Part shown: positions 1 to 7,549 of the stretch, piece after piece
How the letters are laid out: the number at the start of each line of letters is the position of its first letter
How positions within the stretch are numbered: the first letter of the stretch is position 1
Origin: a virus
Taxonomy: Monodnaviria > Loebvirae > Hofneiviricota > Faserviricetes > Tubulavirales > Inoviridae
Length of the DNA: 7,549 bases
Virus record (IMG/VR): IMGVR_UViG_2579778797_000001
Span: 1 to 7,549 of that record
Strand: one strand, 5' to 3'
Translations under genes and position numbers: made by a program
Notes under the pieces: model-generated
Database searches by the model: none
What the model was told of the DNA's origin: nothing
What the model saw: only the letters and a program-made list of their open reading frames with translations

Positions 1-1215
<1,215 letters not shown>

Positions 1216-1229
1216 TTACCCCCGCAAAA

Positions 1230-1589
1230 TTACTTGCCAACATTAAGCCCATTTGATTTAAATAAATCATAAACCAATCGATACACTCTATCCTTATAAA
1301 GATATATGTATGAAATAAATTGAACATGGAGGATGATATTAAAACAGTACTGAATATTTAAAGGAAGGTAACTGAATGCAACTACAATAACATCGAGTTT
1401 ATTAACATCGGAGATTTGACGAATAATAAAATTGACGGCAGATACAAGAGCATAATATGAAGTGTAGCAAAGACCAAGATAAGAAAGGAGCTTAGCCCAT
1501 GCAACAGCTTTATCACCGATAACTCCTGCAATGAAACGTAGTGATTTTAAAACAACATCAACAAAAAAAGCACCTAAAATGGCCCACAT
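1230..1589 (-). CDS. pVI-like minor coat protein (119 aa)
   Basis: Very hydrophobic ~119-aa protein sitting between pIII and pI as in Ff. C-terminal half resembles Ff pVI (ISD...LP.N...CF.IIL.V). Its ATG overlaps the pIII stop (TGATG) at 1587-1591. Confidence 0.8.
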   Translation of the reverse strand: MWAILGAFFVDVVLKSLRFIAGVIGDKAVAWAKLLSYLGLCYTSYYALVSAVNFIIRQISDVNKLDVIVVAFSYLPLNIQYCFNIILHVQFISYIYLYKDRVYRLVYDLFKSNGLNVGK

Positions 1590-2953
1590 CAGAGTTTTAC
1601 CTCACGTTCAAATAATGTACGGCGAGAAATAACAAAAACGCGTAACATGGTTATCATATAAATAGCATATTCAAGAACAGAACGAACATAATCGTCATAA
1701 GCTTTTGCAAAATGGCTTGTATCAATCTTGAAATTAATCGCGCCAATCAACGGAAGATTAAAGCTAAACTGTAAAGTAAAAGGAAGAGCAGTTCCATTAT
1801 TTGTATTTACCAGTTTGTCAATATTAACTGTAAGCCAATTGTTATTATCATGACTCTCACTTCCCTGTCCTGGCAAATAATGCGAAAGCTCCCCTAAAGG
1901 GAAATCCCCATCAGGCAAAGAAGAAGCTATATTCTGACTAATATCTTTAATACCATTGTCCAGTGAATTTAATGCATTATTCATATCAGCCTGAGAAACA
2001 GAAAAAGCATTATTTAAATCATTCACTGACACCCATATTGTTTTTAACCAGCCCAAAATACCATCAAGCCAGCCATTGTCATCGCCGGATGAGCCACCGG
2101 ATCCTGAACCTGAACTACCGCTACCGGATGAACCGCCGGAGCCCGAGCCGGAGCCACCGCTACCGGATGAACCACCGGAGCCAGAACCTGAACCACCACT
2201 GCCGGATGAGCCGCCGGAACCCGAGCCGGAGCCACCGCTACCGGATGAACCACCGGAGCCAGAACCTGAACCACCACCGGAACTGCCGCCGCCTGGGTTA
2301 CCACCACCGGAACTGCCACCACCTGAGCTACCGCCATCCTCCTTACCATCGGAGAATGCAGGATCTACAGCAACTGGTTTCCAGTCGGCAGTACAAACTG
2401 TATCATCATCGGGATTACAAATAAGAGGATTGCCGGTTGCCTCATAAATACACCCCTGCACATTAACATAACGGGTCCCGTCATCACCTTTATAAACATC
2501 AGAAAAAGTCATACCATCAAGAACCGGACGAGAAAGACAAATCTCGTCAGTTGGCGGCTTATTATATTCAGGTGTCAAATCCCCCTCACCACCCTGAAAA
2601 GCAAGGGTGCAGGCTGTCCACTTTTGCTTGTCTGAATCCCAGACTTTATATGCTGACCACCGGGCACGGACAAAAGACCCGACAGTCGAAGGTGCATTAA
2701 CAGGCGTTGAAAGTGGCACACCACAATAATGAATTATTCCGGAACATGCGTCATAATTGCCCGAACCACAGAAAAGATGACCGGCCGCCCTGGCTAATTT
2801 AATCGACGTCCCCGCGTCCGAATAATCTGTCCTGCAGGATGAATGGCCTGCACACTGAACAAGTGCATCCGGATTTTCTTTCTCTTCAGCGAAAGAAAAC
2901 GAGGAAAAGAACAAAAACAGAAGCGGAATAATAAAGTGAATCAAAAAAAACAC
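1589..2953 (-). CDS. pIII-like adsorption/minor coat protein (454 aa): signal peptide, Cys-rich N-terminal domains, Gly/Ser linker, C-terminal anchor domain
   Basis: Signal-like N-terminus (FFLIHFIIPLLFLFFSSFSFA). Motif RYVNVQGCIYEATGNPLICNPDDDTVCTADWKPV matches the Ff g3p N1 core (RYANYEGCLWNATGVVVCTGDETQCYGTWVPI, from memory). Gly/Ser linker at aa 207-290 and C-terminal hydrophobic anchor (YAIYMITMLRVFVISRR). Start is GTG at 2951-2953 with AGGAG directly upstream (spacing very short); exact start uncertain. Confidence 0.9.
   Translation of the reverse strand: MFFLIHFIIPLLFLFFSSFSFAEEKENPDALVQCAGHSSCRTDYSDAGTSIKLARAAGHLFCGSGNYDACSGIIHYCGVPLSTPVNAPSTVGSFVRARWSAYKVWDSDKQKWTACTLAFQGGEGDLTPEYNKPPTDEICLSRPVLDGMTFSDVYKGDDGTRYVNVQGCIYEATGNPLICNPDDDTVCTADWKPVAVDPAFSDGKEDGGSSGGGSSGGGNPGGGSSGGGSGSGSGGSSGSGGSGSGSGGSSGSGGSGSGSGGSSGSGGSGSGSGGSSGSGSSGSGSGGSSGDDNGWLDGILGWLKTIWVSVNDLNNAFSVSQADMNNALNSLDNGIKDISQNIASSLPDGDFPLGELSHYLPGQGSESHDNNNWLTVNIDKLVNTNNGTALPFTLQFSFNLPLIGAINFKIDTSHFAKAYDDYVRSVLEYAIYMITMLRVFVISRRTLFEREVKL
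2084..2335. repeat. In-frame imperfect tandem repeats encoding the pIII Gly/Ser linker (about 5 copies of a 39-bp unit, then 15-bp units)
   Basis: Minus-strand translation GGSSGSGGSGSGS repeated. The antisense frame reads PDEPPEPEPEPPL about 4-5 times, showing the 39-bp period directly. A near-identical block recurs after 78 bp (gagccggagccaccgctaccggatgaaccaccggagccagaacctgaacc). Confidence 0.85.
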
Positions 2954-2964
2954 TCCTGGTATGA

Positions 2965-2989
2965 TTAAAAAAGCGCCCCGGAGGGCGCT
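2965..2989 (-). terminator. Rho-independent terminator downstream of the pVIII-like gene
   Basis: On the minus strand a 7-bp GC stem (AGCGCCC / GGGCGCT, plus 2972-2978 and 2983-2989) with a 4-nt loop is followed by a run of six U (plus-strand A-run 2967-2972). Position matches the strong terminator after gene VIII in Ff. Confidence 0.8.
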
Positions 2990-3004: not shown

Positions 3005-3265
<261 letters not shown>

Positions 3266-3271
3266 TTAAAA

Positions 3272-3442
3272 TTAATTAACAGCATCACTGAACATCCGGC
3301 AGACCAGAGTGAAAATAACACCAAGACCAAAGCCAAGAAGCCAGCAGACAATCCAGACATAAAGAACGGCCCAGTAAAGCTCCCCGTCCTGTACGCCAGA
3401 ATTCAGTGCGGATAAAACACCGCTGAAATCAAATTCAGTCAT
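3272..3442 (-). CDS. Small hydrophobic protein (56 aa from ATG at 3442, or 67 aa from GTG at 3475); possible pVII/pIX-type minor coat protein
   Basis: One strong TM segment (LYWAVLYVWIVCWLLGFGLGVIFTLV), located between the gV-position gene and pVIII as gVII/gIX are in Ff. No clear Shine-Dalgarno before either start; overlaps the upstream small ORF by 8 nt. Confidence 0.5.
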   Translation of the reverse strand: MTEFDFSGVLSALNSGVQDGELYWAVLYVWIVCWLLGFGLGVIFTLVCRMFSDAVN

Positions 3443-3575
3443 AATAACGCTGAACAGTAATGCTTTGTGAGTCACAGGCGCGAATCAGTTTTATTCCGAT
3501 GCCAAAACCTGAAGAAAATAAAATCATTGCAGGCGCAGCAAATAAAACAAAGTTCAGAAAATCAGCGTCAGACAT
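3435..3575 (-). CDS. Small hydrophobic protein (46 aa from ATG at 3575); possible minor coat protein
   Basis: ATG at 3573-3575 lies 4 nt after the stop of the 141-aa ORF, with AAGG upstream. Single TM segment (FLNFVLFAAPAMILFSSGFGIGI). The track start at 3629 is TTG and overlaps the upstream gene, so the shorter form is preferred. Confidence 0.45.
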   Translation of the reverse strand: MSDADFLNFVLFAAPAMILFSSGFGIGIKLIRACDSQSITVQRYYD

Positions 3576-3579
3576 ATCA

Positions 3580-4005
3580 TCAGCCTTTTTCTTTACCTGC
3601 GGGCAGTGCACCCAGCGGCTGACCGTCAAAACGTTTCATGGAGCCGGAAATAAAACGATACCAGACACCATGACGTTCTGAGCCTGTCGACCATGAGTTA
3701 ACATCCACCGTGAGATAAACAGGTTTGCCCTGCAAATCAGGACATGAATTAAAAAATTTAAAATCCTCCTCAGTACAGGAAAATCGCTCATGCTCCTCAC
3801 GGCGGACTTTTAATTTTCGGTCCTCATACGGATAGGCAATAACAATGGCATATTTGGGTTTAGCCTCAGGGTTATAATGAGAACCCGTGGGTTTTAACTC
3901 CTCATCATTTATGACAGTGGCGTGAATAAAATATCCCGCCATTGTCATGCCTGAGGTAAAACCCTCAGGGGAAGGAAACGGAAAACTGTCGTAAATTTGA
4001 TTCAT
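3580..4005 (-). CDS. Hypothetical protein (141 aa) in the position of the ssDNA-binding/RstB-type gene
   Basis: ATG at 4003-4005 preceded by GAGGAG at about 9 nt; starts 30 nt after the Rep stop. Function is inferred from position only; no motif recognised. Confidence 0.7.
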   Translation of the reverse strand: MNQIYDSFPFPSPEGFTSGMTMAGYFIHATVINDEELKPTGSHYNPEAKPKYAIVIAYPYEDRKLKVRREEHERFSCTEEDFKFFNSCPDLQGKPVYLTVDVNSWSTGSERHGVWYRFISGSMKRFDGQPLGALPAGKEKG

Positions 4006-4035
4006 AAAGCAGACTCCTCAATGTTAAAAATTCAG

Positions 4036-6277
<2,242 letters not shown>

Positions 6278-6410
6278 GACCTCATGTCCTCATGATGACA
6301 AACAAAAAAGAACATACTCAAAAAACATCATGAACACAAGATGTATTAACAACATTTGCTCAAGTGCTCTAGAGTACATGATGGCTAAATACAAAAAAGG
6401 GGGCTAAATA
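6278..6410. promoter_or_regulatory. Divergent intergenic control region between the Rep operon and the RHH gene, with short repeats (candidate operators and/or origin)
   Basis: AT-rich 133 bp. CATGATG at 6291-6297 and 6377-6383 and inverted (CATCATG) at 6326-6332. Tandem CCTCATG at 6280-6286 and 6288-6294. Palindrome CTCTAGAG at about 6367-6374. No convincing sigma70 hexamers could be assigned by eye. Confidence 0.4.
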
Positions 6411-6611
6411 ATGGCTGAAAAAAGAAAGAGTTATAACGTGCCAAACGAGAAGTATCTAAAGCTAGAAAGATTAGCTATTGATGCAAGTCAAAAGATAGGA
6501 AGGAGCATAAAATGGACCGAAGTACTGTCTTACATGATAGATCACTACGCAAAAGACGCAGCAATAGATATGGTAAGTCAGGAAGAACTTAAGAAAAAAA
6601 AGGCAATGTGA
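6411..6611 (+). CDS. Small ribbon-helix-helix (CopG/Arc-like) putative transcriptional regulator (66 aa), divergent from the Rep operon
   Basis: ATG at 6411 preceded by AAGGGGG. N-terminal basic beta-strand-like segment (KRKSYNVP) followed by two predicted helices (EKYLKLERLAI; KWTEVLSYMIDHYAK), typical of RHH repressors. Position is analogous to rstR in CTXphi. Confidence 0.6.
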   Translation: MAEKRKSYNVPNEKYLKLERLAIDASQKIGRSIKWTEVLSYMIDHYAKDAAIDMVSQEELKKKKAM

Positions 6612-6830: not shown

Positions 6831-6859
6831 GGTTCAGTGCGCACAATGACGTTATGTAT

Positions 6860-6899
6860 AAAAAGGCCGCTGCGGTGGAGAGTATCGCAGCGGCCTTTT
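6860..6899. terminator. Bidirectional rho-independent terminator at the prophage edge
   Basis: Perfect 10-bp stem GGCCGCTGCG / CGCAGCGGCC (6865-6874 and 6886-6895) with an 11-nt loop, flanked by AAAAA (6860-6864) and TTTT (6896-6899), giving a U-run on both strands. Confidence 0.75.
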
Positions 6900-6929
6900 C
6901 AACATAACGCGTGTCACATTATGCGCACC
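6897..6929. other. dif-like XerC/XerD recombination site; prophage-host junction
   Basis: Minus strand reads GGTGCGCATAA TGT GACACGCG TTATGTTGAAA. The first 14 nt equal E. coli dif (GGTGCGCATAATGTATATTATGTTAAAT, from memory), then the sequence diverges. A XerD-arm-like TTATGTTGAAA (9/11) lies 11 bp from the XerC arm instead of 6 bp. Confidence 0.7.
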
Positions 6930-7005
6930 AATATAAACCAAGGAAGAATCCAGTCGTTGGCGGTCATGATTGTCATGCTCATTAACAATGACCAAACCCC
7001 ATATC

Positions 7006-7209
7006 TCACTTACTACCGTATTCTCGGCTTAACCGTCCATGCAACCTCAACACATTGCTTTCAACTGCCGTCACCACGTTCTCCGGAAAATCTGTCGGTA
7101 ATGAAGTCTTCACGTTATCCAGTGCTGCTGGAATCATTCTGGCAAAGTCACTCAGGATTTCATGCATCTGCACTTCCGGGAATCTCAGCACCTTTGCTGT
7201 CGCCAAAAA
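7006..7209 (-). pseudogene. hipA: 3' fragment of hipA (HipA toxin kinase C-terminal ~67 codons); gene truncated at its 5' side
   Basis: Translation FLATAKVLRFPEVQMHEILSDFARMIPAALDNVKTSLPTDFPENVVTAVESNVLRLHGRLSREYGSK matches my memory of the E. coli HipA C-terminus. The frame is closed by a TGA immediately upstream (7210-7212), so no full-length hipA is possible. HipB operators lie 25 bp away. Confidence 0.6.
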
Positions 7210-7234
7210 TCATGTCATACGTCCACAGCAAGTT

Positions 7235-7347
7235 TATCCGCTTAAGGGGATATTATAAGTTTTATCCTTTAGTGAGGATAAGTCAATCTGGAAACACATC
7301 TTATCCGCTCTACGGGATAAACGCTGCGATATCCGCGATCGCGGATA
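7235..7347 (-). promoter_or_regulatory. hipBA promoter-operator region: four HipB operator palindromes TATCC-N8-GGATA
   Basis: Exact TATCC-N8-GGATA at 7235-7252, 7263-7280, 7302-7319 and 7330-7347 (the last an 18-bp perfect palindrome TATCCGCGATCGCGGATA). Centre spacings are 28, 39 and 28 bp. This matches the published HipB operator consensus and four-operator organisation. Confidence 0.75.
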
Positions 7348-7399
7348 AAAAGGAGGATTTAAATAAGGCGTTGATGCGCCGTTTGAAGTCGGCAATATT

Positions 7400-7428
7400 A
7401 AGCCGCATGCCATCTCGACATGCGGCTT
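7400..7428. other. Inverted repeat / hairpin just downstream of the autotransporter-like gene (possible weak terminator)
   Basis: AAGCCGCATG (7400-7409) pairs with CATGCGGCTT (7419-7428) around a 9-nt loop. Flanks are A/T-rich but there is no clean U-run on either strand. Confidence 0.35.
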
Positions 7429-7435
7429 ATACGGT

Positions 7436-7549
7436 TTACCAGCTATATTTCACTCCCAGCATGCCCTGAGTATCGCTATAGCCTTTATCACCTAGTTGCA
7501 CACCGACATTCCCCCACAGGCTAAGGTTGTTAGTGACATTTCCCGACAT
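7436..7549 (-). CDS. 3' end (last 37 codons) of an outer-membrane autotransporter-like gene continuing beyond the window (yneO/ydeU-like position upstream of hipB)
   Basis: Minus-strand frame open to the window edge; translation ...GNVGVQLGDKGYSDTQGMLGVKYSW then TAA at 7436-7438. Alternating hydrophobic residues and a terminal aromatic (YSW) are typical of the last beta-strand of autotransporter barrels. In E. coli K-12 an autotransporter pseudogene lies directly upstream of hipB (memory). Confidence 0.5.
   Translation of the reverse strand: MSGNVTNNLSLWGNVGVQLGDKGYSDTQGMLGVKYSW

Follow-up and report, generated by a model that had tools for sequence, protein, structure and literature searches.

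What is the function of the gene that directly follows the replication gene in a group of Escherichia coli filamentous prophages, at the place where gene order leads one to expect the phage's own single-stranded DNA (ssDNA)-binding protein? The stretch of DNA that we analysed, 7549 nt and called the window below, is most of an E. coli filamentous (inovirus) prophage coded on the minus strand (Table 1). Reading along that strand, the PF05840 replication gene (Rep) is followed by a gene for a 141-aa protein, the 46-aa and 56-aa transmembrane (TM) proteins, the coat precursor, a terminator, and then the pIII-like, pVI-like and Zot/pI genes. The stretch from Rep to the terminator matches the gII-gV-gVII-gIX-gVIII-terminator order of Ff, and by analogy with Ff the terminator would close a strongly expressed Rep-to-coat operon. 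Comparison with the gene orders of IKe and I2-2 likewise puts the 141-aa gene in the gene V/rstB slot, so that the placement made in the original prediction stands.

Table 1. Features of the prophage and of its end within the window
Feature	Position	Strand	Remarks
Zot/pI	1-1212	-	
pVI-like gene	1230-1589	-	
pIII-like adsorption protein	1589-2953	-	Gly/Ser linker
Intrinsic-terminator-like hairpin and T-run	2972-2989	-	directly after the coat gene
Major coat precursor	3005-3247	-	signal peptide and amphipathic/TM helix; weak phrog_1646 match
56-aa single-TM protein	3272-3442	-	pVII/pIX-like
46-aa single-TM protein	3435-3575	-	pVII/pIX-like
141-aa CDS	3580-4005	-	ATG to TGA; proposed OB-fold ssDNA-binding protein; phrog_30648 member
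Shine-Dalgarno GAGGAG of the 141-aa gene	4014-4019	-	read directly from the sequence
P2 gpA-type replication initiator	4036-6138	-	PF05840 2.8e-48; phrog_91 'nicking at origin' 6.7e-128
Two inverted dif-like sites around a GC-rich hairpin	6836-6932	-	prophage end

The table gives the Rep gene with a start at 6138; PGAP starts it at 6036. In the pIII-like gene the Gly/Ser linker (2044-2450) is long and repetitive (GGSSGSGGSGSGSGG...) and produces spurious long ORFs, in other frames as well as on the opposite strand, such as a Pro/Glu-rich one at 2076-2447 on the plus strand; its length likely varies from copy to copy.

The 141-aa ORF is a genuine gene, part of the conserved core of an E. coli filamentous prophage, and evolves under purifying selection. 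Its Shine-Dalgarno sequence lies 8 nt from the ATG at 4005, its start is 30 nt from the Rep stop codon (4036-4038), and only 4 nt separate its own stop codon from the ATG of the 46-aa gene at 3575. Measured against relatives of 58-95% identity, dN/dS is 0.11-0.14 and substitutions fall mostly at third codon positions. The product is a soluble protein of 16.1 kDa (GRAVY -0.66) in which aromatic residues make up 14% of the sequence, and neither a signal peptide nor a TM segment was found in it. Its slightly acidic pI of ~6.1 is unusual for a DNA binder but not disqualifying.

The exact protein is found in 696 public contigs, and its DNA in 40 of the 5426 complete E. coli genomes; there the PGAP name is 'hypothetical protein', as it is for every database copy listed. 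Over 801 bases that include the ORF, the window has 100% identity with E. coli strain 100416, whose copy (WP_032179869.1, 'hypothetical protein') lies in a tandem prophage adjoining hipBA. The PHROGs collection gives an end-to-end match to phrog_30648 (1.6e-95), a family of 'unknown function'. An exhaustive profile HMM search of 1.84 billion representative proteins delimited a family of nine clusters at 50% identity; word-indexed searches added few further members, and a third round of searching, with the 21-member profile, brought no further relatives. Among deposited phage genomes, megablast with the whole window found nothing and tblastn with the 141-aa protein gave no significant match (best E-values 6-10), and our literature search found no paper on the family.

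Family members are 131-146 aa long and come mostly from E. coli; the most distant, from a marine Psychromonadaceae metagenome-assembled genome (MAG), shares 24-26% of its residues with the window protein, according to the alignment used. Residues F16, G24, F26, K51, V96, W105 and G113 are invariant, and G15, K49, A57, P59, K64, C77, W115, Y116, R125, D127, G128 and L131 nearly so. Both termini carry conserved motifs, an N-terminal extension of ~19 residues (D-x-F-x-F...P-x-G-F) and a C-terminal RFDGxPL tail, which sit outside the barrel that is predicted below.

Gene neighbourhoods in the relatives are equally constant. A family member follows a PF05840 Rep in all eight contexts that we examined (the window and our loci L002/L003, L004, L007, L008, L009, L010 and L011), with at most one small ORF between the two and with coat-type genes next. 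This constancy bears on one possibility that the original prediction had kept in play, that the gene is cargo (a moron) or a virulence gene unrelated to phage DNA metabolism. The lack of functional annotation anywhere ('hypothetical protein', phrog_30648) would suit such a gene, as would the listed hosts, which are mostly human stool isolates. We nonetheless consider it highly improbable: the gene is tightly packed within the core operon, with Rep on one side and the coat genes on the other, its product lacks both a signal peptide and a TM segment, purifying selection acts on the gene, which is conserved from E. coli to Psychromonadaceae, always with Rep, and the same neighbours recur in the marine genome and in several metagenomic inoviruses, whereas the variable accessory genes of these phages lie at the genome ends (PMC4266046; PMC7307601).

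Rep and the 141-aa gene are exchanged together, as a single module. In five E. coli genomes only the stretch 3587-6033 of the window is matched, with ~98% identity, which is exactly Rep plus the 141-aa gene, and in these genomes the shared block adjoins unrelated structural genes. One case is locus L010 (9456-10421 and flanks), which has the module at 98% identity together with a different structural module. The same kind of module exchange, of genes II and V, is described for UPφ901 and Ypfφ (PMC7307601). The L010 prophage has ybiB and hcxB as its neighbours, and an IS110-family transposase abuts its Rep gene; this suggests a route of insertion different from that at the hipA-side locus of the window's and the UPφ-type prophages.

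Locus L003 is informative about the slot. It contains two adjacent prophages in which the small regulatory ORFs upstream are arranged alike; in the first, a GPA-type Rep is followed by a member of our family, and in the second a Rep_trans Rep is followed, at the same position, by an RstB protein (PF07459, 5.3e-26). The slot of the 141-aa gene is equivalent to the RstB slot. The Reps closest to that of the window, those of VFJ, fs2 and Dolos (29-32% identity), are followed by an ordinary, annotated 104-aa ssDNA-binding protein (SSB), and VFJ orf104 and the Dolos SSB belong to phrog_5738. In the window, L002/L003, L007, L008, L009, L010 and L011 we found no other SSB-like gene between Rep and pIII; the remaining genes in that interval are coat-like or encode TM peptides. 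L004 is the exception and is taken up below.

At curated thresholds Pfam, NCBIfam and PDB sequences gave nothing significant for the 141-aa protein, and no SSB family appeared in the Pfam or PDB sequence searches. PF02303, the family of Ff and IKe gene V, did not match at E ≤1 and PF07459 did not match; hhalign gave P values of 0.2-0.3 against the M13 and IKe gene V proteins and of 0.35 against the L003 RstB, and likewise no signal against Pf1 gene V, the VFJ and Dolos SSBs, a gene-V-like ORF of L004 and E. coli SSB. PDB sequence matches of the aminopeptidase C or cruzain type (E 0.06-3) were rejected as chance because they are limited to a short 'SW..G.WY' stretch, and sub-threshold Pfam matches to TRIM_CC (five members) and to families hit by a single member were judged to be noise. 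As far as sequence comparison goes, the protein is not a member of the PF02303, RstB or SSB family.

Ff/IKe gene V and the 141-aa gene nevertheless have the same gene position and operon layout, down to the terminator after the coat gene, and the predicted structure of the 141-aa protein would add a small all-β OB-type barrel to what they share. They differ in length, Ff/IKe gene V having 87-88 aa, and no sequence similarity is detectable between them. CTXφ RstB occupies the same slot, after the Rep of a dif-integrating inovirus, and is interchanged with the 141-aa gene between the sibling prophages of L003, but has no sequence similarity to the 141-aa protein.

The family to which a sequence link does appear is PF17426 (Putative_G5P). 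The window protein matches this profile at 13.6 bits (E 0.075), not reaching the gathering threshold of 25 bits, with residues 85-122 aligned to positions 65-102 of 108. Sub-threshold matches occur in 10 of the 21 members, the best with E 0.006, and the Psychromonadaceae member also touches phrog_1547. Comparison of the two family alignments by hhalign gave 80% probability (P 1.4e-5, score 36.3), over 37 columns (β4-β5) only. As controls, the reversed alignment scored 9.6, 150 column shuffles at most 19.0, and 150 block shuffles, in which local segments stay together, at most 32.3. Residues V96, W105, G113 and Y116 correspond to V73, W82, G89 and Y92 of PF17426, all of them invariant or nearly so. 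A greedy alignment is colinear over residues 20-130, its N-terminal half being without statistical support; relative to PF17426 it would give the protein an N-terminal extension of 19 residues as well as a tail at the C-terminus.

What is PF17426? Pfam's own label for it is 'putative'. Its relatives include the gene V product of phage I2-2 and proteins of several inoviruses annotated 'putative Gamma DNA binding protein G5P', and a 105-aa 'DNA-binding protein' of a UPφ-type E. coli prophage, which sits after a Phage_CRI Rep, belongs to it clearly (1.5e-52; phrog_1547). The gene V proteins of UPφ901 and Ypfφ have a published identity of >85%, from which we infer that PF17426 also takes in the gene V of Ypfφ/CUS-1; beyond the Ypfφ review, the literature search on PF17426 found nothing useful. 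Like the 141-aa protein, PF17426 proteins are encoded next to the replication gene, on its downstream side and ahead of the small coat genes (gVII/gIX/gVIII), they share the β4-hairpin-β5 segment with it, and in both cases the gene moves with its own Rep gene as a module (PMC7307601 for PF17426 gene V). The differences are as plain. PF17426 proteins have ~105-112 aa; the 141-aa protein is a third longer because of additional conserved segments at its N-terminus (~19 aa) and C-terminus (~15-20 aa). The partner of the 141-aa gene is a PF05840 Rep, of a different superfamily from the Phage_CRI/G2P (L038) or differently annotated initiators that accompany PF17426, and the PHROGs families are phrog_30648 and phrog_1547, respectively. 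Judged from the β4-β5 similarity, the 141-aa protein is probably a distant relative of the PF17426 gene V family. The original prediction saw no recognisable ssDNA-binding signature in the protein; this holds at curated thresholds but needs amending for a remote, non-random similarity to one gene V family. Against clear homology to a gene V or RstB family, which the prediction had named as the finding that would overturn it, what we have is this remote similarity over ~37 columns, at 13.6 versus 25 bits.

Structure prediction, which had been suggested as a check, points in the same direction. AlphaFold on an alignment of 13 close relatives gave an uninterpretable model (pLDDT 37.7), whereas AF2 on 21 diverse members reached pLDDT 73.2 and pTM 0.66. 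The elements of the model are β-strands at 21-31, 52-62 and 67-77, a helix at 79-86, and strands at 95-101 and 116-118. The modelled order, β1-β2-β3-α-β4-β5, is that of an OB fold. Confidence is highest for β1-β4 and the helix (pLDDT 85-89) and lowest in the β4-β5 hairpin (52-65). When the model was searched against the PDB with Foldseek, the top matches were almost all bacterial or mitochondrial SSB and PriB, with probabilities up to 0.99-1.0, a best E-value of 5.7e-3 and weak TM-scores of 0.36-0.52; among the 50 PDB matches listed none was a gene V protein. Matches in BFVD were phage SSBs, including the SSB of the Thermus inovirus OH3 (TM-score 0.62 on the target). Over both databases the matches are weak (E-values ≥2e-3, TM-scores 0.36-0.6).

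Like the homo-oligomeric ssDNA binders SSB and PriB, the model has β1-β2-β3-α-β4-β5 and a long β4-β5 hairpin, and with its helix between β3 and β4 it would favour the SSB/PriB type of OB fold over the gene V type. The acidic C-terminal tip of SSB is absent, the 141-aa protein ending in LPAGKEKG. We regard the fold-level evidence as consistent and of moderate strength. A divergent OB-fold protein, one of the options in the original prediction, is the one that we favour from the strand order, the SSB/PriB matches and the PF17426 profile link, and the structural part of that support should be read together with its weak E-values and TM-scores and the low pLDDT of the hairpin.

We think it rather likely, then, that the 141-aa protein is the inovirus's own ssDNA-binding protein, of OB fold, a counterpart of Ff gene V and CTXφ RstB. 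We infer DNA binding, cooperativity, contact residues and a role in integration, along the following lines. The P2 A-type Rep would nick the replicative form, and rolling-circle synthesis would displace the viral strand. The 141-aa protein, made from the same strongly expressed operon, would coat the displaced strand cooperatively; candidate contacts are the aromatic residues F26, W105 and W115/Y116 and the basic residues K49, K51, K64 and R125, on the predicted β-barrel and β4-β5 hairpin. The coat would block the return to double-stranded DNA while leaving duplex hairpins (packaging signal, attP) exposed. At the membrane, the major coat protein would replace the 141-aa protein during extrusion driven by Zot/pI.

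L004, a metagenomic locus, raises a possible objection to this interpretation. There the family member (141 aa) is followed by two unassigned ORFs of 63 and 144 aa (5247-5438, 5529-5963), and then by a 111-aa ORF (5945-6280), for which phrog_1199 'single strand DNA binding protein' gives a match at 3.5e-7 and PF02303 a weak one. L004 is the sole inovirus seen in the group with two SSB-like genes, and its second one means that the family may not simply replace gene V. The pair may reflect either a recent module swap or a real division of labour. The Zot of L010 is 39% identical to that of L004, and L010 is without a phrog_1199-type ORF.

If labour is indeed divided, the 141-aa protein would be an accessory of Rep in replication and not the packaging SSB: an SSB/PriB-like OB factor for the P2 A-type Rep, acting for instance at the origin, in complementary-strand priming or, as pX does, in the regulation of Rep, and docking through its N-terminal motif or its RFDGxPL tail. 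Because the second SSB-like ORF of L004 may have this meaning, we retain the Rep-accessory role at a minor but appreciable probability. It would fit the exclusive occurrence of the family beside PF05840 Reps (eight of eight contexts), the conserved terminal motifs outside the barrel and the presence of PriB among the best structural matches of the model. It would also leave seven of the eight contexts without any phage SSB, and similar GPA-type Reps, those of VFJ, fs2 and Dolos, are paired with an ordinary 104-aa SSB in the slot. The exchange of the gene with Rep as a single block speaks for such a factor, yet bona fide gII+gV modules move together in just the same way (PMC7307601), and the sole sequence link of the 141-aa protein is to a gene V family. 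A narrower form, in which the protein is an SSB/PriB-like adaptor dedicated to the P2 A-type Rep and docks either on Rep itself or on a host factor (replication or Xer), would explain both the constant pairing with this Rep type and the extra canonical gene-V-like SSB of L004; we hold it to be unlikely, slightly more so than the general Rep-accessory role.

A role in integration has to be weighed as well, since the window includes a putative attachment site. At 6836-6932 two dif-like sites, AGTGCGCACAATGACGTTATGT ... ACATAACGCGTGTCACATTATGCGCACC, are inverted with respect to each other, and on the viral (minus) strand the region folds as a single long hairpin with a fork (ΔG -37.7 kcal/mol, z -10.1), whose 6-nt bulge corresponds in position to the central region of dif. 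At the junction between tandem copies in strain 100416, sequences diverge exactly after an XerC-arm-like ...CATTATGCGCAC. No canonical dif was found at ≤3 mismatches in the window or in the strain 100416 locus (L001); the attachment site is a degenerate inverted pair, recognised only through the junction alignment. We take the arrangement to resemble the attP of CTXφ, and by this analogy it looks like a CTXφ-type attP for XerCD. The prophages occur in tandem arrays adjoining hipA, the neighbourhood also of a UPφ-type prophage, which is of the dif-integrating kind (PMC7307601). RstB is reportedly required for CTXφ integration and similar to ssDNA-binding proteins (PMC3545932). Given the folded attP of the window phage, the 141-aa protein may also help XerCD-mediated integration of ssDNA, as RstB is reported to do.

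Could this be its main role? The protein would then present or protect the folded attP ssDNA for XerCD and have little to do with the virion. The inverted dif-like pair with its forked hairpin, the tandem arrays beside hipA shared with a dif-integrating prophage (PMC7307601), RstB in the same slot of the L003 sibling prophage and the reported necessity of RstB for integration (PMC3545932) are what one would expect in that case. The lack of sequence similarity to RstB is not, nor is the occurrence of the gene at 98% identity in L010, away from the hipA-side locus, and we put the chance of a mainly integrative protein as slim. RstB itself being described as SSB-like, such a role overlaps with our preferred explanation, an ssDNA-binding counterpart of gene V, and does not replace it.

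A supported functional label for phrog_30648 would complete the assignment of core genes in this E. coli filamentous prophage group, which is common in human-associated isolates and often found in tandem arrays. The gene V slot of inoviruses holds at least five mutually unrecognisable families (PF02303, PF17426, phrog_5738, RstB and the 141-aa family), and Rep plus SSB replication modules are swapped as units between otherwise unrelated phages. The 141-aa gene would illustrate non-orthologous replacement in this slot. It represents an annotation gap more than a surprise, and assigning it is an incremental step that overturns nothing.

Several observations concern the DNA upstream of Rep. An 82-aa ORF at 6029-6277 on the minus strand, which overlaps the PGAP Rep start at 6036 by a few bases and matches phrog_3104 weakly (6e-4), is absent from the RefSeq annotation and is a putative gene; ORFs of 57-69 aa are found near Rep in the relatives L002, L004 and L007. 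Between 6100 and 6680 the window is ~60% identical to, or unalignable with, the corresponding region of strain 100416 (L001, 11700-12300), unlike Rep and the 141-aa gene, which are ~98-100% identical between the two. This variable region contains a plus-strand 66-aa ORF (6411-6611, phrog_2503), and represents a regulatory or immunity module whose variability recalls the heterogeneity of CTXφ rstR. In L011, a related E. coli inovirus prophage, a 'TolA C-terminal domain-containing protein' is encoded upstream of Rep on the opposite strand (904-1269, 9820-10185); by acting as a decoy in the pIII-TolA interaction it could serve superinfection exclusion.

The last part of the window, 6930-7549, appears to be chromosomal flank and not phage. 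It contains an unannotated 66-aa ORF (7006-7206, minus strand) and ends in a 37-aa fragment (7436-7549, minus strand) that is presumably the C-terminus of an autotransporter β-barrel. In strain 100416, hipBA, which is absent from the window, lies between the prophage and an autotransporter of the ECSE_1600 family.
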